IMG/VR virus record: IMGVR_UViG_3300027733_000039
Location: 33,132-97,131 of that record
DNA from: a virus
Strand: one strand, 5' to 3'
Length of the DNA stretch: 64,000 nt
Shown: positions 10,967 to 28,472 of the stretch, piece by piece
How positions within the stretch are numbered: position 1 is the first letter of the stretch
Layout: each line of letters opens with the position of its first letter
Program-made: the position numbers and the translations under genes
Notes under the pieces: generated by a model
Databases searched by the model: none
Seen by the model: the letters and a program-made list of their open reading frames with translations, nothing else
Told to the model about the DNA's origin: nothing

Positions 10967-10993
10967 GTTGAAACGTGACGACTTAGGAGCCTT

Positions 10994-11161: not shown

Positions 11162-11175
11162 AGTAAACTAAGTGT

Positions 11176-11883
11176 ATGGCCCATACCGTTAACTACAACA
11201 TCACTCGTGGGCTTCCATGGGAACGACTCATTATCCTCAAGGATAGGCGCACTCACAGACAAATTAAACCCACTGAGGCTCGTTCTTTTATCCAGACTAC
11301 TGGCTTGTCTAAAAAAGAATTAACTGTTGATTTAACAAGCGAAAATGGCATTATGTTGTCGCTAAGTGCCGAAGAAACCCAGGATCTACCGTTGGGAGAA
11401 CTTTCCTATGATGTTCTTGCAACTATCAATGAAGTTCAGAGACCAGTAGCAAAGGGTACAATCGTTGTATCGGCTCTTGACAATATTACTCCGTGGGAGG
11501 ATTCACAAGCAATGGAAATCCGCTTTAAGCAACGTGTGGACTTCCGCCGCACTTTCACATGGAAAGATGCTGATGGAGACATACTCACCGTACAGAACGC
11601 CTACATGCAGGCAAAGAACACCGCAGGTGTTACTGTCCTAGACCTTCGTTGGTATGCGTCCACCCCTTCAGAAGCCACCGTTATTGCTCTTCCAGTAGAG
11701 CGACGTGGTTATCTTGCCCCGATTGCTGGTGGAACACTAGAAATGCACATCTCAGATAAAAACACAGTGTCTGCGGGTGCTTACAACTTTGACTTGTTTG
11801 TTCAGGACTCCGCTGGAGACTGGGACTGCTTGGCGAGTGGGACGGTCGTTGTAGAGGCTGCTATCTCTGCACCGCCTGCATGA
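11176..11883 (+). CDS. virion structural protein with two tandem beta-sandwich (BppU-like) repeats
   Basis: Duplicated YD(V/L)...xGTxVV motif; TAAACT-N6-ATG. Confidence 0.6.
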   Translation: MAHTVNYNITRGLPWERLIILKDRRTHRQIKPTEARSFIQTTGLSKKELTVDLTSENGIMLSLSAEETQDLPLGELSYDVLATINEVQRPVAKGTIVVSALDNITPWEDSQAMEIRFKQRVDFRRTFTWKDADGDILTVQNAYMQAKNTAGVTVLDLRWYASTPSEATVIALPVERRGYLAPIAGGTLEMHISDKNTVSAGAYNFDLFVQDSAGDWDCLASGTVVVEAAISAPPA

Positions 11884-12308
11884 GCACAAAAACCGTTGAG
11901 GTAACTAAGCAACCGAACAAGTACGTTACGGTTACACAGAAAAAGACAGTCTCTGTCGTAACTGAACCTGCTGATCAAGTACTTGAAGTCCATGATCCAG
12001 GTGTTGCGGGTCCTCCTAATGTTCTCAGCATTGGCACAGTCACCACAGGTACGGCAAGTGCAAACATTACGGGTATTGCCCCAAACCAAGTCCTTAATCT
12101 TGTTTACCCCGTAGCGGCTAGGCACATTCATACACAGGGTGCTGCTGCTACAACTTGGACAATCACACATGCTTTGGGTGGTTACCCGTCTATTACAGTC
12201 GTTGATAGTGGTAAAACTGTTGTATTTGGGGAAGTAAATTATGTTTCTACCGCACAAGTTGTAGTAAACTTTACATCAGCGTTCTCTGGTTTCGCATACC
12301 TCACGTAA
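11880..12308 (+). CDS. virion structural protein
   Basis: WTITHALGGYPSITVVD...FSGFAYL fibre-associated motif. Confidence 0.65.
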   Translation: MSTKTVEVTKQPNKYVTVTQKKTVSVVTEPADQVLEVHDPGVAGPPNVLSIGTVTTGTASANITGIAPNQVLNLVYPVAARHIHTQGAAATTWTITHALGGYPSITVVDSGKTVVFGEVNYVSTAQVVVNFTSAFSGFAYLT

Positions 12309-12317
12309 GGAAGTTCA

Positions 12318-13610
12318 ATGGCTCAAAAGTTTCTAACTAATATTGACCTCAACCAGAATCAACTGGTTAACGCCAAATTTGAGGTTCTGGGCACTGACCC
12401 GTCAAGTAGCAACTTTGAAGGCCGCCTCATCTATAACAGTACCGAAGACACCATCAAGGTGTACTCAGGTAGCGCATGGCGCAAAATGCTCCACGCCGTG
12501 CAATCCAGTGGTACATATGCCACTGCTCTTACTGTCAGTGAATCTAATGGCACAGTAAGCCTTACCTTAAACCTTGCTGACACCAGCAACGCAGGTTTGT
12601 TGTCTACCACTTTCTGGCAGATGCTTACAGATGCAACTGATGCTGCAACTGCTTCCAAGTTGGCAAAACGTGATGGTAACGGCAACATCAGTGTTGCTGC
12701 CCCAACTGCTGATGGACATGCTGCAACTAAACTATATGTAGACGCAGCCCGTACTGGTCTTGATGTTAAAGCCTCTGTAAGAGTAGCCACCACAGTTGCT
12801 GGAACTTTGAGTTCAAGTTTTGTTAATGGTTCTGTTGTTGATGGTGTAACTCTAGTAACTGGTGACCGTATCTTGATCAAGGATCAAGTATCAGGTTCTG
12901 AGAATGGTATCTACACTGTTAATGCTTCAGGGTCACCAACCCGTGCAACCGACTGTGATGCTTCTGTTGAAGTTACAGCAGGATTTTTTACATTTGTTGC
13001 TGAGGGTACAGCATACGCAGATAGTGGTTGGGTACTTACAACTAACGATACTATCGTTCTTGGAACTACATCCCTTGCTTTTGCTCAATTCTCTGGTGCT
13101 GGTCAAGTTATTGCAGGTACTGGTCTTACTAAGACTGGAAACTCTCTTGACGTTATTGGCACTACTAACCGCATTACAGCAAATGCCGACAGCATTGACA
13201 TTGCTTCTACATATGTTGGTCAGTCAAGCATTACAACACTTGGCACAATTACCACAGGTGTTTGGAACGGTACAGATGTTGCTGTTACAGACGGTGGTAC
13301 TGGTGCATCTACTGAAGCGGTTGCTCGCACTAACTTGGCATCGGCTTCAGGTGAAGCATCAGGTCGCACAACTAGCACTCCTTCCCTTGCTCGTACAGCA
13401 AAACAGGGTTGTGCCGCCAGCATTGCAGGAGTTTCAACTACCACTGTTACTCACAACTTTAGTACAACTGATGTAAACGTAGGAATTTATGAAGTATCAA
13501 CTGGTGCAACCGTTATTGGTGATGTAACCCGTTCTAATAGCAACACACTCTCAGTGGTGCTTTATGGGACTATTGCCGCTAACGACTACACCATTGTTGT
13601 AGTAGGTTAA
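12318..13610 (+). CDS. fibre protein
   Basis: AATKLYVD..GLDVKASVRVAT..GDRILIKDQ..ENGIY phage fibre motif. Confidence 0.7.
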   Translation: MAQKFLTNIDLNQNQLVNAKFEVLGTDPSSSNFEGRLIYNSTEDTIKVYSGSAWRKMLHAVQSSGTYATALTVSESNGTVSLTLNLADTSNAGLLSTTFWQMLTDATDAATASKLAKRDGNGNISVAAPTADGHAATKLYVDAARTGLDVKASVRVATTVAGTLSSSFVNGSVVDGVTLVTGDRILIKDQVSGSENGIYTVNASGSPTRATDCDASVEVTAGFFTFVAEGTAYADSGWVLTTNDTIVLGTTSLAFAQFSGAGQVIAGTGLTKTGNSLDVIGTTNRITANADSIDIASTYVGQSSITTLGTITTGVWNGTDVAVTDGGTGASTEAVARTNLASASGEASGRTTSTPSLARTAKQGCAASIAGVSTTTVTHNFSTTDVNVGIYEVSTGATVIGDVTRSNSNTLSVVLYGTIAANDYTIVVVG

Positions 13611-13658
13611 GAATTAAATAGACCTTGCGGGGTCACAACATAGGAAGCGATTGAGGTC

Positions 13659-14915
13659 GTGGCACAGAAATTTACAGTACCTATTACTGTCAAGCAACTT
13701 GTTTCTGCTGGTTCTGATGCCGTAACCGTTTTTGTTGATGCTGATACCCAGGCTCGCTTAAAGATTGAAGCAGGTGGTCGTCTTACTTGGGGTTCAGGTG
13801 CTTCTGCTGGTGACGTAAACCTCTATCGTGATTCTGCTGACGTCTTAAAAACAGACGACACTCTCAAAGTTCCTACTCTTTTTGTAGACAACATTGAGAT
13901 TGATACCACAGGTGCAGCCCTCAATGACATCTTAGTATTTAATGGTACTAAATTTGGATCTGCCTCAGCATCTTTTGGTGGTGGAGCAAGCCTCAAAGTT
14001 GCAGCAACTGCTCCAGCATCCCCAAACTCTGGTGATCTTTGGTTTAACTCAACAACACTAGAAACATACATTTATTATGATGGTGGTTGGCTCCAAGCAA
14101 GTGGTGAGCCAGATCTTGTAGAAGACTTAACTGATCTTTCTGATGTTGTTCTTACAACTCCAGTTAATGGTCAATTCTTAAAGTTTGATGGAACTCGCTG
14201 GATTAACGGAACTATTCCAACCATTAATACCTTGGATGACATTGGTGACGTTTCTGTAGCATCACCATCGTCTGGGCAATTCTTAAAGTGGAACGGTAGT
14301 GCTTGGGTTGCTGAAACCATTATTGGAGGCGCAACTATCTCTGATACAGCCCCTGCATCACCTTTGGCTGGTCAACTATGGTTCCAGTCAACTAATGGTA
14401 AAACATTTGTTTACTATGACTCATCTTGGATTGAAGTCGGTGGAATTGGTACAGGCGCACGAATGGTGTCTAGTTCTTCCGCACCAGCCTCTCCACTTGA
14501 AGGAAGTATGTGGTTTAATACCAATACTGCCCAAACATTTGTTTATTACGATTCTTCGTGGATTGAAATCGGTGCATCGGGCGTAACTGCCAGTGTGCAG
14601 GATTCCGCCCCAGCATCACCTGTTTCTGGACAAATCTGGTTTAACTCCCTCACGGGTGGTACATATGTCTATTACGGAACTACATGGGTAGAAGTTGGCG
14701 CTTCACCTTTTAGCGCTCTCGTAAACACTATTAATGCTAAAGGTGACCTTCTTGTAGGAACCGCAGATAACACCATTGGTGGGCTTACAGCAGGTTCAGC
14801 CAATCAGGTTCTTACTGTAGATTCTTCTACAGCAACTGGTCTAAAATGGGCTACCCCAACAACATATGCAACAACAGGAAAGGCAATTGCAATGGCAATT
14901 GTATTCGGAGGATAG
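13659..14915 (+). CDS. fibre hub protein with four APASP-G-x-W-F-YxYY-W repeats
   Basis: Four internal repeats, LxDxxDV repeats, C-terminal GKAIAMAIVFGG. Confidence 0.7.
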   Translation: MAQKFTVPITVKQLVSAGSDAVTVFVDADTQARLKIEAGGRLTWGSGASAGDVNLYRDSADVLKTDDTLKVPTLFVDNIEIDTTGAALNDILVFNGTKFGSASASFGGGASLKVAATAPASPNSGDLWFNSTTLETYIYYDGGWLQASGEPDLVEDLTDLSDVVLTTPVNGQFLKFDGTRWINGTIPTINTLDDIGDVSVASPSSGQFLKWNGSAWVAETIIGGATISDTAPASPLAGQLWFQSTNGKTFVYYDSSWIEVGGIGTGARMVSSSSAPASPLEGSMWFNTNTAQTFVYYDSSWIEIGASGVTASVQDSAPASPVSGQIWFNSLTGGTYVYYGTTWVEVGASPFSALVNTINAKGDLLVGTADNTIGGLTAGSANQVLTVDSSTATGLKWATPTTYATTGKAIAMAIVFGG

Positions 14916-14918
14916 ATT

Positions 14919-15272
14919 ATGGCAGCACCAAACATTGTAGGAGTAGCAACAATCACAGGCAAGACAGCAGTTCTTGCACTTACCGCTTCGGCAGTTGCAA
15001 TTGTTACAAACTCAGCAGCCAGTGGACAAGTCTACAAAGTCAACTCATTGTATGTTGCTAACGTAGATGGTGCTACTGCTTTCACGGTAACTATTGATTT
15101 GTTTCGTTCATCTACGGCTTATCGTCTTGCCTATCAAGTATCGGTACCTGCGGGCGCAACACTAGATGTTTTGTCTAAAGCAATCTATCTTGAAGAAGGT
15201 GACTCTATTAGGGCACTTGGTAGCACAACTCTTAAATTAGAGGCTATTTGTTCTTACGAGGTGATTAGTTAA
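14919..15272 (+). CDS. ~117-aa fibre adaptor-like protein
   Basis: Compact beta-rich ORF, YLEEGDSI; precedes a Gly-rich gene. Confidence 0.65.
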   Translation: MAAPNIVGVATITGKTAVLALTASAVAIVTNSAASGQVYKVNSLYVANVDGATAFTVTIDLFRSSTAYRLAYQVSVPAGATLDVLSKAIYLEEGDSIRALGSTTLKLEAICSYEVIS

Positions 15273-16057
15273 TGGCTAGAGGTAACGGTGGATTTCTAGG
15301 AGCAAAGAAGGTTATCAGTAATTCTGCTGCGTCTGGTTTTTACACTTTTGCTGATGCTCAAAGGGAAAGAGGAGCAAGTAACTGGCCCACACCGCCTCTT
15401 CCTCTTACATATCTAGTTCTTGGTGGAGGTGGTGGTGGTTCTGGTGGAACAAGCAGCGTCAACTATGGTTCTGGTGGTGCTGGAGGAACCATTCGCACTG
15501 GTTCTGCTAATGCTCTCTTTGGAACCCAATACACGATTACTGTTGGTGGTGGGGGTGCTTCTTCTATTACAAATGCTTCCTCTGGTGAATCTTCAAGTGC
15601 TTTTGGCATTACTGCTACAGGGGGTGGTGGTTCTGGACAAGGCATGACTGGTGGAAGTAACGCCGATTACTCAGGTGGTAACGGCGGGTTCTATGGTGGT
15701 AGTGGTGCTGGTTCGGGCGGCAACGGAAGTGGTGGGTCTGGCGGTTCTTCTACTGATTCGTCAATTTCTGGAAGTACGGTTTCCTATGGCGGCGGTGGCG
15801 GTTCTCAGTTTGGTAGTAGCGGTGGTGGAGGCGGAGCCATCGTGACGTATGGCTCCTCTGGTGCTGCCAACCGAGGCGGTGGCGGTAGTGGTGGTCAAGC
15901 CAACGGGTCAAATGGTTCTGGCGGTTCTGGTGTGGTGATTATTCGTTACCTAGACACATTCTCATTAGCAACATCAACTACTGGTTCACCAACGATAACA
16001 ACAACAGGTGGCTACAGGATATATACTTTTACTGCATCAGGCAGCATAACCTTCTAA
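15272..16057 (+). CDS. glycine-rich (polyglycine-II-type) domain protein 1
   Basis: YLVLGGGG...GGSGVVIIRY...YTFTASG. Confidence 0.75.
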   Translation: MARGNGGFLGAKKVISNSAASGFYTFADAQRERGASNWPTPPLPLTYLVLGGGGGGSGGTSSVNYGSGGAGGTIRTGSANALFGTQYTITVGGGGASSITNASSGESSSAFGITATGGGGSGQGMTGGSNADYSGGNGGFYGGSGAGSGGNGSGGSGGSSTDSSISGSTVSYGGGGGSQFGSSGGGGGAIVTYGSSGAANRGGGGSGGQANGSNGSGGSGVVIIRYLDTFSLATSTTGSPTITTTGGYRIYTFTASGSITF

Positions 16058-16069
16058 GGAGAAATAAAC

Positions 16070-16438
16070 ATGGCACATTTTGCTGAAATTGGCGAAGACA
16101 ACATTGTATTGCGAGTCATCGTGGTATCTAATGATGATTGCAAAGATGGCGCAGGAAGCGAATCAGAGGCTGTAGGCGCTGAATTCTGTCGTAATCTGTT
16201 GGGTGGAACGTGGAAGCAGACCTCGTACAACGGCACCATTCGTGCTCGCTATGCAGGTATTGGTTACAAGTATGATTCCGCTCTAAATGCGTACATCGCC
16301 CCTAAACCTTTCCCTTCTTGGACTCTTAACGAAGACACCACTGAATGGGAAGCACCAGTTGCTCGTCCAGCAGAGGGTATGTACAGTTGGGACGAAGAAG
16401 AGCAAGAGTGGGTGGAAATCGTTATTCCTTCGGAATAA
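16070..16438 (+). CDS. fibre-associated small protein (MAHFA type)
   Basis: MAHFAEI...WKQTSYN...PKPFPSW...WEAPV. Confidence 0.7.
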   Translation: MAHFAEIGEDNIVLRVIVVSNDDCKDGAGSESEAVGAEFCRNLLGGTWKQTSYNGTIRARYAGIGYKYDSALNAYIAPKPFPSWTLNEDTTEWEAPVARPAEGMYSWDEEEQEWVEIVIPSE

Positions 16439-16441
16439 TAG

Positions 16442-17632
16442 ATGTCCCTTACTTTTCCCGCCTCTCCAAGCGTTGGTGATACCTACACTGTAGGTGCACG
16501 TACTTGGACATGGTCAGGAACAATTTGGGAAATCACAGGAACTGTTGCGGCGGCTGGTTCTATTGGAACTACTGAACTAGCGGCAAGTGCGGTAACAGCC
16601 GCCAAAATTGCCGACAGTACAATAACTTCAGCCAAACTTGCTTCTACTGTCCCTGTAGTTACGGTCTGTACTTCGTCAACAAAACCTGCATCACCTTTTA
16701 CAGGTCAAACGATTTTTGAGACTGATACCAATCTCATGAAAGTCTATATAACAGGTGGTTGGAGCAACGGTACATCACATTTCCGAAGTCTTTCTGTTGA
16801 CTATCTTGTTGTCGCAGGTGGCGGAGGCGGCGGTCATGGTTATCCACCTGGCAGTAGCACCGATGGATATGGTGGCGGCGGAGGCGGTGGTGGACTACGA
16901 AGCACAGTAGCGGCGACTAGCAATAGTGGAACATTAGAAGCAGCATTAGCACTTACGCCTGCAACTTATACAGTTACGGTTGGTGCTGGTGGTGCTGGTG
17001 GCAATATCTCCAATGGTTCCAATGGTCAAAACTCAGTATTTTCGTCTATTACAGCAACGGGTGGCGGTGGTGGCGGTGCAGGTGGAACAGCAGCAAACTC
17101 TAGTGTCGGCTTAAACGGCGGTTCGGGTGGCGGTGGCGGTGGTCGTGGCGCAAAGGCTGGTGGAACGGGAATTAGTGGACAAGGCAATAACGGTGGCGCT
17201 TCACTTGCTGGAGATGGTTATTACGGCGGTGGCGGCGGTGGCGGTTCGTCTGCCGCTGGTACAGGTTCTGTGGCATATGTTGGTGGCGCAGGTGGTAGTG
17301 GAACAACAAATTCAATAACTGGTTCTTCTGTTGTTTACGGTGGTGGCGGTGGAGGTTCATCTTTAACTGGTGGTGCTGCGGGTTCGGGTGGTGGAACAGC
17401 AGGCACCAGTGGTATAGGGAACTCAAGTTCTGCTTCAGCAAACACTGGTGGTGGTTCGGGTGGTGGCGGTGGCGGAACTGGACCAACTGGGGCTGGTGGT
17501 TCAGGCGTAGTAATTGTTCGTTACCTAACCGCAGACGCTACTGGTTTAACAATTACAGGCGGAACCGCAACAACCTCTGGCTCGTACACAGTTCGTACAT
17601 TTACTGCATCAGGAAGCCTAGTAATATCTTAG
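16442..17632 (+). CDS. glycine-rich domain protein 2 with FPxSP N-terminal module
   Basis: MSLTFPASP; CTSSTKP..GQTIFETDT; Gly-rich domain. Confidence 0.75.
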   Translation: MSLTFPASPSVGDTYTVGARTWTWSGTIWEITGTVAAAGSIGTTELAASAVTAAKIADSTITSAKLASTVPVVTVCTSSTKPASPFTGQTIFETDTNLMKVYITGGWSNGTSHFRSLSVDYLVVAGGGGGGHGYPPGSSTDGYGGGGGGGGLRSTVAATSNSGTLEAALALTPATYTVTVGAGGAGGNISNGSNGQNSVFSSITATGGGGGGAGGTAANSSVGLNGGSGGGGGGRGAKAGGTGISGQGNNGGASLAGDGYYGGGGGGGSSAAGTGSVAYVGGAGGSGTTNSITGSSVVYGGGGGGSSLTGGAAGSGGGTAGTSGIGNSSSASANTGGGSGGGGGGTGPTGAGGSGVVIVRYLTADATGLTITGGTATTSGSYTVRTFTASGSLVIS

Positions 17633-17633
17633 T

Positions 17634-19013
17634 ATGGCTATAGATTTTCCAAACTCACCAGCCACAAATGATTCTTTCACGTCAGGTGGAAAGAAGTGGA
17701 TCTTTAACGGCACCACTTGGAACCTCATTACTGCTAACTCTTATACTATTCCTACAAGTGAAGTAACAGCGGCAAAAATTGCTTCTAATGCTGTTACTGA
17801 GGTAAAGATTAACGATGGGGCAGTAACCCAAGCCAAACTTGCTTCTGGTCTTTCAGGAATTACGGTTACTACTACGGCTAACCGCTCGGCTGTTATCCCG
17901 TCACCTTTTGCTGGTCAATTCATTTTCCTCACTGACACAAGCCAACTACAACGATGGGACGGTAGTGCTTGGGTTGTTGCTATTACTACAGTGCCAACAG
18001 GTGCACCTACGTCTGTAGCAGTCTCAGGTTCACCTACATCTAGCACGGTCACACTTACGTTTTCTGCTGGTGGTGATGGTGGTTCAGCAATCACCAACTA
18101 CCAATATGCTCTTTCCACGAATGCTGGCTCAACATACGGTTCATACACGGCACTTTCTCCCGCCGATGGAACTAGTCCGATAACAATTACGGGTCTTGCC
18201 CTAGGCACAACTTACTACGTAAAACTTAAAGCAGTAAACGCTTTGGGTGCTGGTACATCAGAATCCTCTGCTATTTCCTTTACTACGTCAAGCCTTTCTG
18301 TTGATTATATTGTCGTTGCGGGTGGAGGTGGTGCTGGCGGAAACCGTGGTGGTGGAGGCGGCGCAGGCGGAATGTTGGTATACACAAACCAAAGTGCTTC
18401 TGTTGGAACCTATGCTTTTGTTGTCGGCGGCGGAGGTGGTGGACAAACATCTGGAGTTGAGTCCGTACAAGGGCAAAGTTCTTCTGCTTTTGGAAATACC
18501 GCTACTGGTGGAGGTAGGGGCGGTGGCAACTTGGGTGGTTCTAGCAATGGCGGTTCAGGCGGTTCGGGTGGCGGTGGCGGTTCCAATAATGGCGCTACTG
18601 GTGGTGCTGGTACGGCTGGTCAGGGCAATAGTGGAGGAAGTTCTGATGGCGGTGGCGGTGGCGGCGGAGGAAAAACTGGTGCTGGTGCAAATAGCGTTGG
18701 TGGTTTAGGTGCTGGCGGTGCTGGTTTGGCTAGTTCAATAACTGGTTCATCTGTCACTTACGCTACTGGCGGAATAGGCGGTGCTTCTGGAGATAGTTCA
18801 AATCCTGCTGTCAATGGTACTGCAAACACTGGCAATGGTGGTGTAGGTGGTGCAGGAAACGTAGCAGGTGGTGTTGGCGGTTCTGGTGTAGTTATTGTCC
18901 GTTATTTAACAGCCGATGGTTCAGGTGCCACTATTACAGGTGGCACTGTTACTACATCAGGTTCCTACACAGTCCGTACATTCACAGCATCAGGAAGTTT
19001 GGTTATCGCATAA
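17634..19013 (+). CDS. glycine-rich domain protein 3 with FPNSP module and FN3 domain
   Basis: MAIDFPNSP; DGGSAITNY..ITGL..GTTYYVKLKAVN FN3 signature. Confidence 0.75.
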   Translation: MAIDFPNSPATNDSFTSGGKKWIFNGTTWNLITANSYTIPTSEVTAAKIASNAVTEVKINDGAVTQAKLASGLSGITVTTTANRSAVIPSPFAGQFIFLTDTSQLQRWDGSAWVVAITTVPTGAPTSVAVSGSPTSSTVTLTFSAGGDGGSAITNYQYALSTNAGSTYGSYTALSPADGTSPITITGLALGTTYYVKLKAVNALGAGTSESSAISFTTSSLSVDYIVVAGGGGAGGNRGGGGGAGGMLVYTNQSASVGTYAFVVGGGGGGQTSGVESVQGQSSSAFGNTATGGGRGGGNLGGSSNGGSGGSGGGGGSNNGATGGAGTAGQGNSGGSSDGGGGGGGGKTGAGANSVGGLGAGGAGLASSITGSSVTYATGGIGGASGDSSNPAVNGTANTGNGGVGGAGNVAGGVGGSGVVIVRYLTADGSGATITGGTVTTSGSYTVRTFTASGSLVIA

Positions 19014-19327
19014 TGGCTATAGATTTCCCTAACTCACCATCTAACAACGATCAATACACTGTTGGAGCAACAACATGGATGTATAACGGCACAGCATGGG
19101 TTATCGTCTTAGGCGAATCCTCAATTGCTACGGGTGCAGTAACTACTGATAAAATTGCTACTAACGCTATAACGGCGGCAAAATTGGCAACAGGTGCAAC
19201 TAATGCTTATGTGTTAACGGCGGATTCCACCACCACAGCAGGCGTTAAATGGGCATTTATTCCACCATCAGGTGGTTTATCTACCAGCACAGAAGGTGCC
19301 ATAATGACAATGAGTATTGGAGCGTAA
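19013..19327 (+). CDS. short FPNSP-module stem protein
   Basis: MAIDFPNSP; ends EGAIMTMSIGA. Confidence 0.7.
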   Translation: MAIDFPNSPSNNDQYTVGATTWMYNGTAWVIVLGESSIATGAVTTDKIATNAITAAKLATGATNAYVLTADSTTTAGVKWAFIPPSGGLSTSTEGAIMTMSIGA

Positions 19328-19328
19328 T

Positions 19329-19664
19329 ATGGCATCAGGCGACAGAGCAGAAGCACGTTTAGGCGGCCCAACACAGTTAGGTACATCCACCACTACCTTA
19401 TGCACCGTAACAGCGGGTCATACCTATGTAGTGAAACAGATCATCATTTCTAATACAGATACTGTGGATCGTAATGTGACTTTGGCTATTGGTTCGGCGG
19501 CTACAGGTGCAAACCAAATCATGTCAGCGCTACCTATTGGCGCAAACGATCTCATGGTATGGGATACCGCCCTCGTTCTTAACACAACGGAGACATTACA
19601 AGGTTTATCAGATACAGCATCTAAAGTTACGGTCACGGTAGTCGGCTGGGATAAGACAAACTAA
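19329..19664 (+). CDS. fibre adaptor-like protein
   Basis: Size and pattern like 14919..15272; GGAG RBS before ATG 19329. Confidence 0.65.
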   Translation: MASGDRAEARLGGPTQLGTSTTTLCTVTAGHTYVVKQIIISNTDTVDRNVTLAIGSAATGANQIMSALPIGANDLMVWDTALVLNTTETLQGLSDTASKVTVTVVGWDKTN

Positions 19665-19667
19665 TCT

Positions 19668-20615: not shown

Positions 20616-21214
20616 CAATCTCAGCAACTTCTAAAGGGCTAAAGAATGGGGTTTGCACCTCATCTAATCGCCCAGCGAACCCGTTTGACGGCATGGTCAT
20701 TTATGAAACGGACACCGACAAGATTGCTGTATATGACTCATCGGCTTGGGTGTATAAAACTGGCACTGCTGCGCCCGTAACTGGATATAAGTTAAATGTT
20801 ACAGCCACCGCTGGAACATCCATTAGTGATTCTACAGCAACAACAATTTTAAGTGGCTCAGTAACTGTTGTCCCAGGACGTGTATACCAAGTCTATGGTT
20901 CTTGTGCGGCTCAATCTGGAAGCACAATTACATGGAGAGCGCTATGGATTGCCCAATCTAGTTCTGGTTTTGTTCGGGGACTCTATCAGTCTCCACATAC
21001 AACTACCGCCAACCTTCCAATTTCTATGCAAGGAACTACAACTTTCCTTGCATCAGATGTTGGTGTAACTACGGGTAGTGGCACTGCACTCACTTTTGAT
21101 TTACGTATGCGAATGAACGGTGGTATCACTGGACTGAATACGAACCCTGATGGCATTATTGGTGCAAACTCTTTTCCACAAGTTTTAACAATCATTGATA
21201 TAGGAGCAATTTAA
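20612..21214 (+). CDS. fibre tip protein (GVCTS module + non-Gly-rich head)
   Basis: GVCTSSNRP..IYETDT; ends IIDIG. Confidence 0.65.
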   Translation: MTISATSKGLKNGVCTSSNRPANPFDGMVIYETDTDKIAVYDSSAWVYKTGTAAPVTGYKLNVTATAGTSISDSTATTILSGSVTVVPGRVYQVYGSCAAQSGSTITWRALWIAQSSSGFVRGLYQSPHTTTANLPISMQGTTTFLASDVGVTTGSGTALTFDLRMRMNGGITGLNTNPDGIIGANSFPQVLTIIDIGAI

Positions 21215-22173
21215 TGCCCCTCTCTTCTGTTATCGGCGCACAATCGTTGATTAAACCTGGTGTCTGCACATCTACAACTCGCCCTGCATCACCTTACACA
21301 GGGCAAATGATTTATGAGAGTGATACAAACAAGTTACGTTTGTGGAACGGTACTGCGTGGTCAAATGTGACGCACAGTATTGGTTTATCTATTGAGTATC
21401 TAGTTATTGCTGGTGGTGGTGGTGGTGGTTGGGACGTTGGTGGTGGCGGTGGCGCAGGCGGTTTCAGAACTAACGTAAGTGGTGCTACTTCTGGCGGTGG
21501 AGGGCCTTCTGAAGCGGCAATGATTCTTGTTCCAAATACCTACACTGTTACCGTTGGTGCTGGTGGCGCAACAACAAGCGGACCATCGCCAAGACTTTCA
21601 TTTAGCGGTAATGATTCTGTGTTTTCTACAATCACTTCGGTGGGCGGTGGAGGTGGCGGAAACTGGATTGCTTCAGGTAGCAGTGATACAAACAAAAACG
21701 GAAAATCTGGTGGCTCTGGTGGCGGAGGTGGTGGTTACCAAATGGTTTCAACTGGTGGCGCTGGTACTACGGCACAAGGATACGCTGGTGGAGCGTCATC
21801 GGTTAATAGCACAGAAGCAACTGGCGGTGGTGGTGGAGGTGCTGGAAGCGTAGGTGCTGTTGGAATTTCTAGTGGCAGTGGTTTTGCCGCTGGCGGTACA
21901 GGTTTAGCATCAAGCATTACAGGAACCTCTGTCACTTACGCTACTGGCGGTAAAGGCGGAGGAGATAGTTGGACTGGGGGTGTTATTGGAGCCAGCAATA
22001 CTGGTAACGGCGGGGATGGTCAAGGCTCTTCTGCCAACACTACGGGTGGTTCGGGAATAGTTATTATCCGCTACCTGATTGGCGCTGGGTCGGCAACAGG
22101 CGGAACTATTACAACTTCTGGTGTATATACAGTTCACACGTTTACATCCTCAGGAAATTTGGTTATCACATAA
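21214..22173 (+). CDS. glycine-rich domain protein 5
   Basis: GVCTSTTRP module + Gly-rich domain. Confidence 0.75.
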   Translation: MPLSSVIGAQSLIKPGVCTSTTRPASPYTGQMIYESDTNKLRLWNGTAWSNVTHSIGLSIEYLVIAGGGGGGWDVGGGGGAGGFRTNVSGATSGGGGPSEAAMILVPNTYTVTVGAGGATTSGPSPRLSFSGNDSVFSTITSVGGGGGGNWIASGSSDTNKNGKSGGSGGGGGGYQMVSTGGAGTTAQGYAGGASSVNSTEATGGGGGGAGSVGAVGISSGSGFAAGGTGLASSITGTSVTYATGGKGGGDSWTGGVIGASNTGNGGDGQGSSANTTGGSGIVIIRYLIGAGSATGGTITTSGVYTVHTFTSSGNLVIT

Positions 22174-22352
22174 TGCCTGCACCAATTGATTTCCCTAACT
22201 CTCCATCTTCTGGAGATGAATACGTAGCAGGCGGTATGGTTTGGCGCTATCTTAATGGTGTTTGGAAGCGCTTCCCACAAACTGTTTCTGATAGCGGTTT
22301 TTCTGATACACCTCTCAACGCTTATTTTGTAGATGATGGTGGAGGCGCATAA
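22173..22352 (+). CDS. 59-aa FPNSP-module linker protein (not in ORF track)
   Basis: MPAPIDFPNSPSSGDEY...VDDGGGA; TAATG overlaps at both ends. Confidence 0.75.
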   Translation: MPAPIDFPNSPSSGDEYVAGGMVWRYLNGVWKRFPQTVSDSGFSDTPLNAYFVDDGGGA

Positions 22353-23137
22353 TGGCATATCGCCGCATTCTTATTCGCCGTGACACGGCTGCGAACTGGA
22401 CAGCGAACAACCCAACGCTTGCCGCTGGTGAGTTTGGACATGAGACCGATACAGGCAAACTTAAACTTGGTACAGGCGCAATAGCGTGGAACAGTTTGGG
22501 TTACCAAAATAATGTTACTTCTGTAAACGGTTCTACGGGTGCAGTAACGGGTCTTGCCCCAACTGCTAGCCCAACCTTCACAGGCACTGTCTCTGGTGTC
22601 ACTAAAGGGATGGTCGGACTTGGCAATGTGGATAACACAAGTGACGCAAATAAACCAGTATCCACTGCACAGCAAACCGCTCTTGATCTTAAATCAAACC
22701 TTGCTTCCCCAACTTTCACGGGCACTGTAGTTTTACCTAACTCTACAGTCACGGCTACGATGATTGCATCAGATGCTGTAACGCAAGCAAAGATCGCTGA
22801 CAGGGCTGTTGGTTCTGCCGAACTTACAAACTTAACTTTAAATGCCCAAACTGGAACTACATACACCTTGGCGCTTACGGATGCACAAAAATTAGTCACA
22901 TTAAATAATGCGTCTGCAATTTCTTTAACCGTGCCTACAAATGCAACTGCTGCTTTTACTATTGGTGATCAAGTTAACTTATTGCAGTTAGGTGCTGGGC
23001 AGGTAACAGTGTCTGGCGCTGGCGTTACTTTCCGTTCTGAAGGCTCAAAACTTAAATTAAAAGCCCAATACGCAATAGCCACTCTTATCAAAGTTGGAAC
23101 AGATGAATGGGTTGTTGTCGGAAACTTGGCGGCGTAA
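22352..23137 (+). CDS. fibre protein with Mtd/hyaluronidase-type N-terminal module
   Basis: RRDTAANW..NPTLAAGEFG.ETDTGK.K.G; GLGNVDNTSD; ends WVVVGNL. Confidence 0.7.
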   Translation: MAYRRILIRRDTAANWTANNPTLAAGEFGHETDTGKLKLGTGAIAWNSLGYQNNVTSVNGSTGAVTGLAPTASPTFTGTVSGVTKGMVGLGNVDNTSDANKPVSTAQQTALDLKSNLASPTFTGTVVLPNSTVTATMIASDAVTQAKIADRAVGSAELTNLTLNAQTGTTYTLALTDAQKLVTLNNASAISLTVPTNATAAFTIGDQVNLLQLGAGQVTVSGAGVTFRSEGSKLKLKAQYAIATLIKVGTDEWVVVGNLAA

Positions 23138-23898
23138 TGCAAGTATTAGCAAATGTTGCTGCAAGTGCATTTGAATCCACAGGTGGAACAATAACCGCCT
23201 ACTCAACGTACCGTGTGCATTCTTTTACGGCGTCTGGAACTTTTACAATATCTGAAACAAAGACTGTGGACATGCTCGTAATCGGCGCAGGTGGAGGTCG
23301 TGGGGGTCAAGACGGTGGAAATAACTATGGAAGCGGTGGAGGCGGTGCGGGAGCGATGAACGAGGTAACCTCCTACTCGTTGGCGGCAGGAACATACGCC
23401 GTAACAGTTGGCGGTGGCGGCAACGGCTCACTATCAGACGGAAGTCCCAGCAGTTTTGGTTCTTTGTACTCAGCGCAAGGTGGTGGTGGAGGTGGTTATC
23501 CTAACGGTTTTGCATCCACAGGCGGCAGAACTGGTGGTTCGGGTGGTGGCGGAGGAAGCCGTGGCGGTGGTGGAACTGACCCTGGTGGTGGCGCTTCTGG
23601 CCCAAACACCAATGTTGGCGGTTATGGTGTCCATAGCCCAGGACAGTACCACGCAGGCGGTGGCGGAGGTGGAGCAGGTGGCGCAGGCAGTGACGCAGGA
23701 CAAACAGGTGGTGCTGGTCGTGCAAACTCTATTCGCACTGGTTCTTCAGTTACTTACTGTGTTGGTGGTTATGGAAAGTACAATAATAGTGATGGTGGTC
23801 CAGATCCAGCAGCAAATAGCGGAAGTGGCGCATCTGGAACAGCAGCACCAAGCCGTGGTGCGGATGGTATTGTAGTTATACGTTTAATCCCAACGTGA
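23137..23898 (+). CDS. glycine-rich domain protein 6
   Basis: N-terminal YRVHSFTASG, then Gly-rich domain; TAATG coupling. Confidence 0.75.
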   Translation: MQVLANVAASAFESTGGTITAYSTYRVHSFTASGTFTISETKTVDMLVIGAGGGRGGQDGGNNYGSGGGGAGAMNEVTSYSLAAGTYAVTVGGGGNGSLSDGSPSSFGSLYSAQGGGGGGYPNGFASTGGRTGGSGGGGGSRGGGGTDPGGGASGPNTNVGGYGVHSPGQYHAGGGGGGAGGAGSDAGQTGGAGRANSIRTGSSVTYCVGGYGKYNNSDGGPDPAANSGSGASGTAAPSRGADGIVVIRLIPT

Positions 23899-23917
23899 CC
23901 CTAATTGGAGATGACCA

Positions 23918-24442
23918 ATGACAACTAGACGAATACTGATTCGTAGGGACACGGCGGCGGCTTGGACTGCGGCTAACCCTACCCTTGCGTCTGGCGAACT
24001 GGGCGGAGAAACCGATACAGGAAAACTCAAACTTGGAAATGGCTCAACCGCATGGAACAGCCTCGCCTACCAAGGTGGCGTTACCTCAGTTAACGGCAAT
24101 ACGGGTGTAGTGACTGGTCTTGCTCCGACTGCTAGCCCAACTTTCACTGGAACAGTTGTTTTGCCCGCAACAACATCTATTGGAACAATCACCAATACTG
24201 AGTTGTCGTATGTAGACGGAGTCACTTCTGCTATCCAAACTCAATTAGATACCAAAGCCCCTACAAGCAATGCTTCATTTACGGGAACTTTTAGCGCCCC
24301 AGCAGGAACCATTACTAGCACTATGCTTGCTGATGGTACTATCGTCAACGCAGACATTGATGCTTCGGCTGCTATTGCAACAACAAAAATCACTGGCTGG
24401 GAAAATGACCAAGTTGTTTTGAACAACAGAATATTTAATTAG
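23918..24442 (+). CDS. fibre stem protein with Mtd-type N-terminal module
   Basis: N-terminal ~80 aa nearly identical to 22352; ends NDQVVLNNRIFN. Confidence 0.7.
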   Translation: MTTRRILIRRDTAAAWTAANPTLASGELGGETDTGKLKLGNGSTAWNSLAYQGGVTSVNGNTGVVTGLAPTASPTFTGTVVLPATTSIGTITNTELSYVDGVTSAIQTQLDTKAPTSNASFTGTFSAPAGTITSTMLADGTIVNADIDASAAIATTKITGWENDQVVLNNRIFN

Positions 24443-24450
24443 GAGACATC

Positions 24451-24810
24451 ATGGCAACATTTAGCAAAACAATTCTTAGCGGTTCAACAGATGGTAAAGG
24501 TGTTCTTGTAGCGGCAACTGCTACAGCAGGAACATTGGTTCATACTGGTTCTGCAACTGCGGCAACCTTGCATGAGGTTTGGCTGTATGCAGTTAACACT
24601 TCGGCTTCAGATGTTAAGTTGACAATTGAATGGGGCGAGGCTACTGCACCTAACGGTAATATTGAGTACACGGTTAAGGCTGAAAACGGTTTGTATCTAA
24701 TCGTTCCAGGTCTACTGCTGAAAGGCAATGCGTCAGCACTTACAGTAAAGGCTTTTGCCGCAACAACAAACGTAATCGTTGTTCACGGATACGTCAACGT
24801 AATCGCCTAG
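24451..24810 (+). CDS. fibre adaptor-like protein
   Basis: Paralog of 27229..27585 (LSGSTxGK, ExWxYA, LTxEWG, GYVxxI). Confidence 0.7.
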   Translation: MATFSKTILSGSTDGKGVLVAATATAGTLVHTGSATAATLHEVWLYAVNTSASDVKLTIEWGEATAPNGNIEYTVKAENGLYLIVPGLLLKGNASALTVKAFAATTNVIVVHGYVNVIA

Positions 24811-24821
24811 GTCTTAAATAC

Positions 24822-25763
24822 ATGGGCCTAATTAATAACTTTATGAGCGGTGGACGCTCTATTTCTGCTGGGTCACTAAATCCACGAGCCAATCGTGGTT
24901 CCACAAATCAGGCTGATGGGTATTGGCGTGGTGGTCTTTCTGGTTTTGCCGCAGTGGGAGCAACTGGTAGTTATGCATTGTCAACACTAGGTGGTTTCAA
25001 GTATTTGACCTTCACGGCTGGTGGAACAATGAACGTCACCGATGGTGGGACTGCTGATGTCTTGGTGGTAGCGGGAGGTGCCGCTGGAGGATATGGTGGC
25101 GCAGGCGGTGGTGGTGGTGGCGGTGTGCGAGTTTCTGCTGGAACAATTTTGACAACACTTACTTTTAATTCTGGAGTAAGCACAATAACAATTGGTAACG
25201 GTGGCAGTTCTGGGGCAGACGGTTCATCGGGTTATGGCGGCAGTGGAGGCACATCAAGCATTACACATGCTGCGGGGACTTTCTCAGCAACGGGTGGCGG
25301 TGGAGGCGGTACTGGTGGTGCTAGTTCTGGTGGTTCTGGTGGCGGTGGAATAGGTTCCTATGGATCAGGAAACGCTGGTGGATATACACCAGCGGAAGGA
25401 AAAAATGGTAGCGGAAGCGGTGCTGCTGGCGTCGGTGGTGGTGGAGGTTGGTCAGCCGCTGGTGATGGCTCAATGGGTTACGGAGGAGAAGGTCTTGCTG
25501 TGAATACAGCCGACTCAAACCTTTCAACTGTCATTGGCTACTCGGTTGTTGGTTCTGGTGGCGGTGGTGCAGGAAACTGTAACAACGGTGGTTCAGGAAA
25601 CATTTATGGTGGTACTGGTGGGGGTAAAGGCTCATACGGAAATGATGCACAAAACGCAACTAGTTACGGTTCTGGTGGCGGCGGTGGCGGAAACTGTTTT
25701 GGTTCCCTATATCACGGTGGTGCTGGCAGGTCTGGAATTATTGTGATCAGGTGGGCGGCATGA
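24822..25763 (+). CDS. glycine-rich domain protein 7
   Basis: KYLTFTAGG then VLVVAGG...SGIIVIRW. Confidence 0.75.
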   Translation: MGLINNFMSGGRSISAGSLNPRANRGSTNQADGYWRGGLSGFAAVGATGSYALSTLGGFKYLTFTAGGTMNVTDGGTADVLVVAGGAAGGYGGAGGGGGGGVRVSAGTILTTLTFNSGVSTITIGNGGSSGADGSSGYGGSGGTSSITHAAGTFSATGGGGGGTGGASSGGSGGGGIGSYGSGNAGGYTPAEGKNGSGSGAAGVGGGGGWSAAGDGSMGYGGEGLAVNTADSNLSTVIGYSVVGSGGGGAGNCNNGGSGNIYGGTGGGKGSYGNDAQNATSYGSGGGGGGNCFGSLYHGGAGRSGIIVIRWAA

Positions 25764-26035
25764 AAAATGTTGCAATAATGGATGGAAATGTTGTTGTCAA
25801 TGTTACATTGTGTGGTGATGACTATGTTTTATCTGAAAACGAAATAGAATACTTTGATGACAAACCTGCTTTCATAAATGGAGATTATGTTGACGGCTAT
25901 TTTTATGGTGTTCAACCATTTCCTTCTTGGACAAGGTATGAGGGTGTTTGGATACCGCCAGTTCCCCGACCAGAGACAAGGGACAATTGGTATTGGGATG
26001 AAGAGAAACGAGAGTTTTCTATATACAACGGATAG
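25760..26035 (+). CDS. fibre-associated small protein
   Basis: QPFPSW..WIPPVPRP..WDEE, related to the C-terminus of 16070..16438. Confidence 0.7.
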   Translation: MKNVAIMDGNVVVNVTLCGDDYVLSENEIEYFDDKPAFINGDYVDGYFYGVQPFPSWTRYEGVWIPPVPRPETRDNWYWDEEKREFSIYNG

Positions 26036-26044
26036 GTTTGTTCG

Positions 26045-26569
26045 TTGATTTACGATAATCTTTTACCTGAAAACGATTTGGTGAAACTATTAGATTTAAT
26101 TGAATCAGTGAATTTTCCCTTTTATTGGCAGGAAGACATTGATTACGGAAACAAAATCACGAACGACATTTATAATTATGGTTTTGCTCATCTTTTCTTT
26201 GATGAGGGCAATCGGCTATACAGCCCATTTTTAGATCAGATTGAACCAGTTGTTTCAGCGATGTGTGAGCGCATAGGTAAACCTTTAAAGCAGTTGCTTC
26301 GGATCAGGGCTGTTCTGTTAACAAATGTTGGTTGTGAACATAGGAATGTGAAACATGTTGATTTGGATGAGTACCCCAATTCTCTTACTGGTATTTTTTA
26401 TCCGAACAAAACTGATGGGGATCTATATGTTTATGACGGAGATATGATGAGTTCTATTGAACCAATCAGAAATAGGTGTGTGGTGTTAGGTGGAGCGGTT
26501 CCTCATCATGGTTCAAATCCTACAAAACATAAAAGGAGAGTTGTAGTAAATGTTAACTTCATTGTTTAA
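26045..26569 (+). CDS. 2OG-Fe(II) oxygenase
   Basis: HVD...H...R triad (KHVD, PHHG, RVVVNVN). Confidence 0.75.
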   Translation: MIYDNLLPENDLVKLLDLIESVNFPFYWQEDIDYGNKITNDIYNYGFAHLFFDEGNRLYSPFLDQIEPVVSAMCERIGKPLKQLLRIRAVLLTNVGCEHRNVKHVDLDEYPNSLTGIFYPNKTDGDLYVYDGDMMSSIEPIRNRCVVLGGAVPHHGSNPTKHKRRVVVNVNFIV

Positions 26570-27155
26570 TGGAAAACCAAGAATAGAACAATGGTTCCCA
26601 AAGCCTATTTACATACATAATAACTTTTATGCCGATGGGCATTCTGAACTCCACAAATGGTTGTTGGACTATTTTGGTCAAGGGGCAGAGGTCAAAAGGA
26701 CACCAGAACTAAACGTGTCCTCAACACACATGGTTAACAACTTTAATAATGAACCAATTTTTCAGCCTTTGATTGAAGCGATCCGTGAAGAAGTCTTAAA
26801 CTTTGCTACAACCTTGGGTTATGACATATCAATTTTTCATCTTCCGTTGCTGAATATTTGGGCAAACTTAAGTGAAACTGGCGACCATTTGTTTCCCCAT
26901 AATCACCCTGGGAGTTTTATAAGTGGTGCTTACTACATAGAGTGTGATAGTGACCTTGATGTCATAAAGTTTTATAGTGATACAAACAACATGATTACCC
27001 CATCCCCCTTCCCCAATAAGTACTCATTTGAGGATGCTTCCTATGTTTGTGAGCCAAAACGTCTTTTGTTGTTTAAGAGCAATTTCATACACGGGTGCCC
27101 TGCTATTAAAGGAAAAAGGAAGATTGTTGTTTCCTTTAATTTCAATTTATTGTAG
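26550..27155 (+). CDS. 2OG-Fe(II) oxygenase-like protein (TIGR02466-type)
   Basis: WAN..PHNHP.S.ISGAYY..LLLF.S...H..VSFN. Confidence 0.75.
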   Translation: MLTSLFNGKPRIEQWFPKPIYIHNNFYADGHSELHKWLLDYFGQGAEVKRTPELNVSSTHMVNNFNNEPIFQPLIEAIREEVLNFATTLGYDISIFHLPLLNIWANLSETGDHLFPHNHPGSFISGAYYIECDSDLDVIKFYSDTNNMITPSPFPNKYSFEDASYVCEPKRLLLFKSNFIHGCPAIKGKRKIVVSFNFNLL

Positions 27156-27228
27156 TTGGTAGGTTATACAGGTACCCACCCCAATAAATTAGGTAAACTA
27201 GGGCAATACAGATTTCTAAGGAGAACTA

Positions 27229-27585
27229 ATGGCTTCATACACTAAAAACAAACTATCGGGTTCAACTAACGGTAAAGCAGTCAGAGTTAGTGGCACCTCA
27301 ACGGGTACAGCCGTTACTGTCCATCAAGCAGTTACAGGTACTGCAAACTGGGATGAGATTTGGGTATACGCAAATAACACCAGCGCCACTGCTGCCAAAC
27401 TAACTTTGGAGTGGGGAACCACTACTGCTATTGATGGCAACATTGAACTCACTGTCTCCGCTGAATCTGGACTGGTTCTAGTTATTCCTGGCATTATCTT
27501 GCAGAACTCTTTGTTAGTTAAGGCTTTTGCCGCTACTGCCGATGTCATTCTTTTGACTGGGTACGTTCATAACATCACGGCATAA
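27229..27585 (+). CDS. fibre adaptor-like protein
   Basis: Paralog of 24451..24810; own TAAACT promoter and AGGAG RBS. Confidence 0.7.
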   Translation: MASYTKNKLSGSTNGKAVRVSGTSTGTAVTVHQAVTGTANWDEIWVYANNTSATAAKLTLEWGTTTAIDGNIELTVSAESGLVLVIPGIILQNSLLVKAFAATADVILLTGYVHNITA

Positions 27586-27587
27586 CT

Positions 27588-28472
27588 ATGCCAACCTTTT
27601 GGGATAAGAGAAATAACGTAAGTCAAACCGTTGTTAGTACACCCACCTCTATAAAAACACGCCCATCAACAACTGTTGCTTCTTGGTTTAACCCTCTAAA
27701 CAATAAATTAGTTGCTACAGGTGGAAGCATCCTTGACGTTAGTGGTTACCGTGTGCACACCTTTCAAGCATCTGGATCTTTCATCGTTACTTCTGGTTCT
27801 GCAACTATTCAAATAGGTTTGCTTTCTGGAGGAGGTGCTGGAAAAGGAGATGGCAACGGAGGTGGCGGTGGCGGTGGAGGAGGCTACAAAGAATTTACAA
27901 TTACTGGTGTTGGCGTAGGTACATACAGTGTGGCTGTTGGTGGAGGTGGTCCAGCAAATACAATTGGTGGTGCTTCCTATATGCCCGAGTTTTATATAAA
28001 TAGCACAGGTGGTGGACCAGGTAGTGGATTTGCCACTGTCGGTGGCGTTGGCGGCAACGGAGGTGGTGGTGGCGCTTTTGCCGCTGGTGGGTCATCCTAC
28101 CCAGATGAAGGTAACGCTGGTGGTGCTGGAAACTTTTACAATGGTGGAGGTGGCGGCGGCAGAGGAAGTGCGGGTAGTGCGGGTGGAGCCAACCCAGTAG
28201 AAACTGGTGGTAATGGTGGTACTGGCGCTTTACTTCCTTGGGCAAACATCCCATCTATACAAGTAATGAGTGCGGGTGGCGGTGGAGGAGGCGGTGGCGG
28301 TGGAGGTGGTGTTTCCACTGGTGGAGCAGGCGGTGGCGGAAACGGAGCAGGTTACGCTGGCGGTGCTAATGGTGTTGCAGGAACACAATTTATTGGAGGT
28401 GGTGGAGGTGGCGGATACTTCGCTGGAGGAAATGGTGGTAGTGGAACGGTGTGGATTAGGTATGTCCTCTAG
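27588..28472 (+). CDS. glycine-rich domain protein 8
   Basis: YRVHTFQASG then Gly-rich domain, GGSGTVWIRY. Confidence 0.75.
   Translation: MPTFWDKRNNVSQTVVSTPTSIKTRPSTTVASWFNPLNNKLVATGGSILDVSGYRVHTFQASGSFIVTSGSATIQIGLLSGGGAGKGDGNGGGGGGGGGYKEFTITGVGVGTYSVAVGGGGPANTIGGASYMPEFYINSTGGGPGSGFATVGGVGGNGGGGGAFAAGGSSYPDEGNAGGAGNFYNGGGGGGRGSAGSAGGANPVETGGNGGTGALLPWANIPSIQVMSAGGGGGGGGGGGGVSTGGAGGGGNGAGYAGGANGVAGTQFIGGGGGGGYFAGGNGGSGTVWIRYVL

Follow-up and report, generated by a model that had tools for sequence, protein, structure and literature searches.

What does a phage build from 25 co-oriented genes that carry the same few modules again and again? The question is raised by positions 11176-28472 of the stretch analysed here (the window, 64,000 nucleotides), which is the last 64 kb of IMG/VR record IMGVR_UViG_3300027733_000039, a single contig of 97,131 bp that is rated complete. 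A sequence-only reading of this array had counted 25 genes on one strand and proposed that they form a hierarchical tree of fibres with different tips, which might allow many receptors to be sampled in dilute habitats; the listing of open reading frames (ORFs) confirms the 25 genes, all of them on the + strand. Our answer, to which we give a probability of roughly 60%, is that the array is a receptor-binding block that builds one branched fibre, in which repeated units (A units) of a hub protein, g13659, dock proteins that start with a second kind of unit (F units).

The argument depends on a small set of short modules, which are named here A (APASP..G..WF..YxYY..W), B (L.DL.DV..P..GQ.L.W.G..W), C (CTS..ETDT), F (FPxSP..W..G..W) and M (an Mtd_N start). 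A six-frame scan of the whole genome with hidden Markov models (HMMs) finds exactly 4 A, 4 F, 5 C, 2 M and 2 B units, and all of them lie inside the array. The A units stand at residues 118, 231, 275 and 317 of the hub, in the number that had been described, but two B units at residues 151-226 had been overlooked, and the hub carries six related units in all. The F units are N-terminal in the four genes that had been singled out, and the C units are also where they had been reported, in g16442, g19668, g20612 and g21214, with a divergent copy in g17634. The hub and its proposed partners are arranged as follows, with lengths in amino acids (aa):

13659-14915, + strand: hub g13659, 418 aa; conserved N-terminal anchor of ~95 aa, units in the order A1-B-B-A2-A3-A4, K-type C-terminal tail.
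13998-14105, + strand: A1 unit, a proposed socket, of type NSTTLETY..WLQASG; HMM score 63.8.
14118-14330, + strand: two B units, shaft repeats; HMM scores 57.9 and 68.9.
14334-14705, + strand: A2, A3 and A4 in tandem, proposed sockets; HMM scores 67-77.
16442-17632, + strand: g16442, with an F unit (16442-16546), a C unit (16658-16774) and a glycine-rich tip.
17634-19013, + strand: g17634, with an F unit (17634-17738), a divergent C unit (17856-17984), an FN3 domain and a glycine-rich tip; Pfam PF21722 and fn3.
19013-19327, + strand: g19013, a 104-aa adaptor with an F unit and a K-type C-terminal tail homologous to the C-terminal end of the hub.
22173-22352, + strand: g22173, a 59-aa adaptor with an F unit (22179-22283) and a DSG..DDGGG tail (..VDDGGGA end).

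The positions of the units follow a simple rule, as F is always N-terminal (at residues 1-36 in the four genes listed and in 85 distinct sequences from relatives) and A is always internal. The sequence-only reading had taken the two as plug and socket, and the notion that these would be unrelated parts has to be given up. After the profiles had been enriched with sequences from 80 related loci, hhalign relates A to F with 94% probability (E 1e-7), A to C with 97%, C to Mtd_N with 93% and C to B with 86%. Because the profiles are homologous, 'plug' and 'socket' are better seen as positional variants of one beta unit of ~35 aa, with the family pattern PxxPxxG(D/Q)x-hydrophobic ... hydrophobic-x-hydrophobic-x-G-x-x-W. 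Pro, Asn and Asp are abundant in the docking units.

As we picture the assembly, the hub would be anchored through its conserved N-terminal ~95 residues, and its shaft would be made of these ~35-aa beta units. Each of the four A units would dock one protein species bearing an N-terminal F unit, namely g16442 and g17634, which bring glycine-rich tips of their own, and the adaptors g19013 and g22173.

The evidence that carries this reading is the parity between A and F units. Whether the number of hub repeats tracks the number of F-start genes across genomes had been suggested as a check, and it was run by counting A and F with HMMs in IMG/VR relatives, the loci being extended 10-20 kb downstream where contigs allowed. 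In the discovery set, A equals F in 22 of 32 non-redundant arrays, the two never differ by more than one and their Spearman rho is 0.94, while random re-pairing gives 6.3 exact matches on average and 17 at most. A second, independent scan, seeded with the hub of another lineage, provided a validation set of 29 new arrays with automatic counts, in which A equals F in 22 (rho 0.91). In the same set, F correlates with the other modules at rho -0.58 (B), 0.54 (C), 0.20 (M) and 0.55 (glycine-rich genes). Across analyses, the A-F coefficient stays at 0.91-0.95, and those of other modules run from -0.6 to 0.8. As F tracks A far more closely than the other modules, the parity is not a mere matter of array size. 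Additionally, none of the 11 arrays whose fibres contain B units only has an F unit, and F was seen in no array without A.

The counts also vary inside the lineage of the window (major capsid protein, MCP, 79-93% identical), yet A equals F every time: 4/4 in the window, L004, L009 and L028, 3/3 in L025, 1/1 in L053 and L029, and 0/0 in L044. The same held for three arrays that contig ends had truncated and that were completed later (L028, 4/4; L130, 3/3; L011, 7/7). The last of these (IMGVR_UViG_3300035670_000033, 8708-27600, with L178) is the largest array seen, with a 1,026-aa hub that has five A units, two more A units in a nested F-A-A protein and seven F-start genes. Moreover, each A position and each F type retains its own sequence type across genomes. 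For instance, the A1 type and the Fd type (SSGDEY..VWKRFPQT, the Mtd_N adaptor) are both present in 7 arrays and both missing from 36, with no discordant case among the 43. One of the seven is L011, whose lineage has no matching MCP, and in L013 both types are replaced together. This pairing is only suggestive, since most of the seven arrays are close kin and L008 combines the A types of the window with other F units. When the A units were typed by single linkage, most of them fell into one group.

Several observations weigh against the branched fibre as we read it, and departures from parity come first. Strict equality of repeats and partners does not hold across arrays, although the counts track each other: about a quarter of arrays are one F unit short (L106, L111, L021 and L077, and those where an Mtd_N gene directly follows a short hub, L034, L037, L057, L070, L078, L079, L131 and L141), and F exceeds A by one in L040 and L065. 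Type-to-type pairing is not strict either, as L008 has the A types of the window but a different set of F units. In the best tree of the 95-aa hub anchor, which is poorly resolved, the state of two or more A units changes nine times and that of two or more F units eight times. In a tree-controlled sign test on four independent pairs on well-supported branches, F changes in the same direction as A in 2.7 of the pairs on average and in the opposite one in none, with p 0.25; as there are only four independent pairs, the test is underpowered and cannot reach significance.

These departures, together with the non-significant sign test, would fit a reading in which the genes encode independent alternative fibres, each of which binds the baseplate or a shared adaptor alone; the A repeats would then be shaft units only, and the parity a product of shared ancestry and co-expansion of modular arrays. 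The kinship of A, B, C, F and M would suit such fibres too, as generic shaft units or N-terminal prism units could well form one family. We nevertheless regard this explanation as improbable, given that F follows A and neither B (negative), M (0.2) nor C (0.5), that counts of 0, 1, 3 and 4 all stand at exact parity within one lineage, that the completed arrays came out equal, and that F is missing from every B-only array and never found without A.

If the A units account for the first level of branching, the next levels may be specified by two kinds of C-terminal tail. The genes concerned, with those of the glycine-rich proteins, are the following:

14919-15272, + strand: g14919, all-beta small protein of ~117 aa, subfamily 1, after the K-type tail of the hub.
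15272-16057, + strand: g15272, glycine-rich tip (PGD), no docking unit, probably the hub's own distal tip; PF21722, E 1e-16.
19317-19664, + strand: g19317, small protein of ~115 aa, subfamily 1, after the K-type tail of g19013.
19668-20615, + strand: g19668, C unit (19701-19826) and a tip modelled as TNF-like and glycine-rich.
20612-21214, + strand: g20612, C unit (20642-20761) and a non-glycine C-terminal domain of ~150 aa.
21214-22173, + strand: g21214, C unit (21250-21375) and a glycine-rich tip; PF21722.
22352-23137, + strand: g22352, Mtd_N-start fibre, 261 aa; PF18454, E 2e-12, 47.0 bits.
23107-23898, + strand: g23107, glycine-rich tip with the 'TFTASG' strand N-terminal; PF21722; translation probably starts at the ATG at 23137.
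23918-24442, + strand: g23918, Mtd_N-start fibre, 174 aa; PF18454, E 2.5e-13, 50.2 bits.
24451-24810, + strand: g24451, small protein of 119 aa, subfamily 2; phrog_30535, E 5e-50.
24822-25763, + strand: g24822, glycine-rich tip; PF21722.
27229-27585, + strand: g27229, small protein of 118 aa, subfamily 2, 51% identical to g24451; phrog_30535.
27588-28472, + strand: g27588, glycine-rich tip, last gene of the array; PF21722.

The K-type tail (..QVLTxDS..G.KW..AIxMxI..G) is directly followed by a ~117-aa protein for 34 of 36 distinct ORFs. In the window, it is carried by the hub and g19013, whose C-terminal ~55 residues are homologous, and a glycine-rich gene comes after the tail and the ~117-aa protein. 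The four paralogs of this size (g14919, g19317, g24451 and g27229), each reported directly before a glycine-rich gene, fall into two remotely related all-beta subfamilies (hhalign 63%); in the ESM Atlas they belong to virus-only clusters of hypothetical proteins, the fold of g24451 being confident. They may act as connectors or chaperones. The second kind of tail is found on mini-proteins of 53-70 aa that consist of an F unit only, which as a rule have the ending (I/L)DGG..x10-25..DGG and an Mtd_N-start gene immediately downstream. The same tail occurs on short hubs that have an Mtd_N gene directly after them, and hubs without it are followed by an F-plus-tail mini-adaptor and then by the Mtd_N gene. 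As the tail stands either on the hub or on the mini-adaptor, the two arrangements are a fission/fusion pair, in which a hub with the tail equals a hub plus an F unit with the tail. Overall, the DGG..DGG tail precedes 33 of 40 distinct Mtd_N-start genes under a strict regular expression, several of the misses being failures of that expression. In the window, g22173 precedes two such proteins, g22352 and g23918, both of which score above the curated cut-off of Mtd_N (PF18454, 26.3 bits) at their N-terminus, in agreement with the earlier description of this 59-aa protein as an F unit with a DDGGG end placed before a pair of fibres. A whole cassette may also have a one-gene equivalent: in L004, which has the same hub as the window, a single F+C+glycine-rich gene replaces g19013, the small protein and the three C-start genes.

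The hierarchical tree that had been proposed is thus supported in part, by the adjacency of tails and next genes. In our reading, the DGG..DGG tail of g22173 would take the Mtd_N-start fibre g22352, and perhaps also g23918, with a glycine-rich protein capping the fibre. The K-type tails of the hub and g19013 would take a ~117-aa protein together with glycine-rich or C-unit proteins. The end product would be one branched fibre with eight polyglycine tips resembling Pam3 gp24, plus g20612. We are more tentative, at somewhat less than even odds, about the general notion that the ~35-aa beta units constitute a self-recognising, countable assembly grammar, in which each A recruits one F-start partner and each of two tail kinds a defined next protein.

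The eight glycine-rich proteins that had been counted all exceed the cut-off of Gly_rich_2 (PF21722; 29.5-70.2 bits against 24.3), a very large family with at least 3,792 matches, all of them unnamed. The AlphaFold2 (AF2) model of g19668, built from a 51-sequence alignment, has a predicted local distance difference test score (pLDDT) of 92.7 and a predicted template-modelling score (pTM) of 0.84. Its residues 55-289 match the Bxb1 tail-tip chain 9d93_Qa (Z 11.8, root-mean-square deviation 3.1 over 153 aa, 37% identity) and the fibre protein gp24 of Pam3, 7ypx_A (Z 11.0, 3.2 over 152 aa, 30% identity), and the next matches, the glycine-rich domain of ALK (Z 4.9) and snow-flea antifreeze proteins (Z 4-4.5), are far lower. 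These clear matches came from a wide fold search, Foldseek alone having given weak E-values. Pam3 gp24 is a homotrimeric receptor-binding fibre, which has a TNF-like domain and binds the receptor through a glycine-rich lattice (PMC9608196), and 'polyglycine-rich domains' occur in minor tail proteins of mycobacteriophages too (PMC13252515; bioRxiv 10.64898/2026.07.24.740622). Given the matches to Bxb1 and Pam3, the tips are new members of a known receptor-binding fold, and the model of g19668 shows extended glycine-rich strands arranged as a lattice on a TNF-like sandwich. A phmmer search of PDB sequences with g19668 returned only IcsA, a match that was judged spurious.

The eight paralogs come in two permuted forms, according to the place of a motif, 'Y.V.TFT.SG..', that completes the TNF-like sandwich: C-terminal in g15272, g16442, g17634, g19668 and g21214, and N-terminal in g23107, g24822 and g27588. 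Pam3 and Bxb1 differ in this regard from the window, in which the last sandwich strand is C-terminal in five paralogs and N-terminal in three, although they share with it the TNF-like sandwich, the glycine-rich lattice and the role of a distal receptor-binding tip. In Pam3 (7ypx/7yfw; PMC9608196), the only fibre gene encodes an alpha-helical baseplate anchor and is followed by the gene of a chaperone, gp25, whereas here there are eight paralogs, with F or C units or no anchor, and no gp25-like gene is present.

The tips had previously been compared with the gp38 adhesin of phage S16, a relationship that is displaced by Pam3 gp24 and the Bxb1 tail tip (Z 11-12) as the closest solved structures. 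S16 gp38 (6F45) is not among the 50 matches listed in the fold search of g19668, and the comparison with it rests on the Pam3 paper, which aligns gp24 with gp38 over 52 residues only (PMC9608196); the middle domain is TNF-like here and a beta-helix in gp38. What the array does share with S16 gp37-gp38 is a separate glycine-rich gene after a fibre gene (g23107 after g22352, g24822 after g23918), the product of which would cap the tip.

Homology between A and F also counts against our reading, since one unit would have to bind its own homologue and the two could instead co-assemble into mixed prisms, a live alternative to side-on docking; so does the AF2 monomer of the hub, a string of beads of poor quality (pLDDT 70, pTM 0.23). 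In such a co-assembly, F and A units would fold into mixed beta-prism layers with the partners as single-chain arms, or the fibre would grow by end-on extension after gene fission. The homology itself fits this idea, as does the fused form of the tailed hub (...B plus DGG tail), where a B unit sits in the place that F takes in the split adaptor. Polyglycine domains can work as monomers, for instance in S16 gp38 and ALK, which would suit single-chain arms. Furthermore, the C unit of g19668 (residues 12-55) is a small beta meander in the AF2 model. It aligns structurally with the prism unit at the N-terminus of Mtd and with N-terminal domains of tailspikes from podoviruses at Z of 3.5-4.7, which is weak, the domain being small; in Mtd, where the related unit forms a trimeric prism, the match covers residues 5-49 (1yu0, Z 3.5). 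Against it, the closest tip of known structure, Pam3 gp24, forms a homotrimer (PMC9608196), and four partners on one hub are impossible by pure end-on extension; we hold co-assembly to be unlikely. Six tandem hub units had also been considered as two intramolecular pseudo-trimers, an idea that was dropped because the unit totals of relatives are not multiples of three. Pfam searches at E up to 5 gave no match for the hub, the adaptors or the small proteins; relatives of the hub bear the precomputed label PF26696.

Where the fibre would sit on the virion is a separate matter, for which the genome offers some indications. The gene calls of the window include the large terminase (30354-31919), the portal, the MCP (39152-40237), the tail sheath (45733-47310) and baseplate wedge/J-like proteins (55020-57004); given the sheath and the baseplate genes, this is a contractile-tailed phage. 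Among cultured phages, Streptomyces phages such as BRock and LuckySocke are closest to it (MCP 58% identical, terminase 46%), and the genome has two WhiB-family genes outside the window (genome positions 20477-20677, +, and 22945-23139, -), which indicates an actinophage. We infer a host among freshwater Actinobacteria; a scan of genome contigs with the hub alignment found no prophage copy that would name it. The close relatives were all recovered from IMG/VR metagenome contigs. In LuckySocke, the region upstream of the terminase gene lacks an array of this kind, and megablast of the array against INPHARED phages gave no matches, nor did tblastn with one glycine-rich protein, in which case the low-complexity filter is probably the cause. 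Searches for terminase and MCP in the other array-bearing contigs were mostly empty, which is taken only as a sign of other lineages.

The location of the array speaks against our reading as well, since it adjoins lysis and terminase genes and lies ~27 kb upstream of the baseplate genes. This neighbourhood, with an endolysin and a terminase gene next door, would fit a real tree mounted on the neck, collar or capsid, in the manner of whiskers or head fibres, and serving a reversible first contact rather than triggering. The product of g12318 matches a PHROG of 'head decoration' (E 1e-37), and the anchor domain of the hub is conserved among phages whose capsid and terminase genes are unrelated; both observations agree with such a site. 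The same PHROG search of g12318, however, also returns tail-fibre families, the closest solved tips are located on the baseplate (Pam3) and the tail tip (Bxb1), and no other fibre gene was identified near the baseplate, although one ORF there is unassigned. A neck or capsid site is consequently a doubtful proposition in our view. The unassigned ORF (539 aa, 57008-58627) lies directly after the baseplate J-like gene and has no PHROG or other family match and none of the docking units; in view of it, the earlier statement that no fibre gene follows the baseplate operon is to be taken as provisional. It is a candidate for the partner, on the side of the baseplate, of the conserved N-terminal anchor of the hub.

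Among known systems, the anchor-branch systems come closest in layout. In G7C, CBA120 and Klebsiella phages, they combine a T4gp10-like branching domain with a conserved N-terminal peptide (PMC6872550, PMC13352976, PMC11414711), and we compare them through G7C gp66/gp63.1, CBA120 TSP1-4 and the Klebsiella KP32/KP34/Menlow/PhiK64-1 groups (Latka 2019, PMC6872550). As in those systems, there would be a primary fibre with a conserved N-terminal anchor and docking sites, here predicted from the genes, secondary proteins with a short conserved N-terminal docking element (the F unit), truncated adaptors and, if all tips are displayed at once, several different tips on one particle. By contrast, the sites are here ~35-aa repeats homologous to the docking element, the parts are much smaller, and the number of sites (0-7) matches that of partner genes across many phages, a parity of which we have found no description for anchor-branch systems. 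The tips also differ, as they are polyglycine domains and not depolymerases, and a freshwater actinobacterium is the probable host. In none of the 25 proteins did Pfam or PHROG match a T4gp10-like branching domain, the hub model being too poor for a fold search. Like BPP-1 Mtd and the N-termini of HylP-type fibres, g22352 and g23918 start with an Mtd_N unit. Unlike in BPP-1, no C-type lectin variable domain was found and there is no reverse transcriptase: PF00078 has no match in the complete 97-kb genome, while controls match, and a diversity-generating retroelement is thereby ruled out.

The remaining genes of the array are these:

11176-11883, + strand: g11176, 235 aa, first gene of the block; phrog_1084 (function not known).
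11880-12308, + strand: g11880, 142 aa, with a fibre-like C-terminal domain; several PHROGs including 'tail protein'.
12318-13610, + strand: g12318, 430 aa, fibre-like; PHROG families of tail fibre and head decoration.
16070-16438, + strand: g16070, 122 aa, with a PFPSW motif, paralog of g25751 (BLAST, jackhmmer); phrog_7759, E 9e-43.
25751-26035, + strand: g25751, 94-aa PFPSW protein, paralog of g16070.
26045-27155, + strand: g26045 and g26550, two 2OG-Fe(II) oxygenases.

Of these, g12318 has the MAQKF start of the hub and, by the C HMM, a weak C-like unit at residues 30-55, and it is kept directly upstream of hubs in the loci of relatives, as C(431). The two oxygenases, recognised by PF13640 (E 7.5e-5, which falls short of the Pfam cut-off) and PF13759 (E 1e-13), may modify fibre proteins by hydroxylation. 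The paralogs g16070 and g25751, which are interspersed in the array, have the common motif PFPSW..W..P.P.P....W.WDE....W (phrog_7759).

Outside the array, a VanY-type D-Ala-D-Ala carboxypeptidase (probable endolysin) and a KTSC-domain protein (28490-29530) lie between it and the terminase gene. Just upstream are a PhyH-type dioxygenase (7800-8588, - strand) and a 678-aa protein (8930-10966) without a family match, which has a signal-like N-terminal segment, a long mucin-like stretch rich in Thr, Ser and Pro, helical segments in which 'LS..E' recurs and a C-terminus that is hydrophobic.

For branched receptor-binding complexes, known from a small number of cultured enterobacterial phages, the wiring has to be solved case by case. 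Here, the wiring is apparently written in countable sequence modules, and the rule holds across dozens of uncultured freshwater lineages with unrelated capsid genes. The polyglycine receptor-binding domain, known from single tips, here forms part of an array of eight paralogs, which widens its known use. Should the docking be real, the architecture and valency of a fibre would be predictable from metagenomic sequence alone, and the ~35-aa units would provide a compact set of parts for building multi-tip fibres. If, additionally, the units do act as an assembly grammar, the branching pattern, up to at least seven branches, would be readable from gene sequence and perhaps re-programmable. In any case where docking takes place, these arrays would offer a view of how phages of the abundant and hard-to-culture freshwater Actinobacteria hedge across many receptors.

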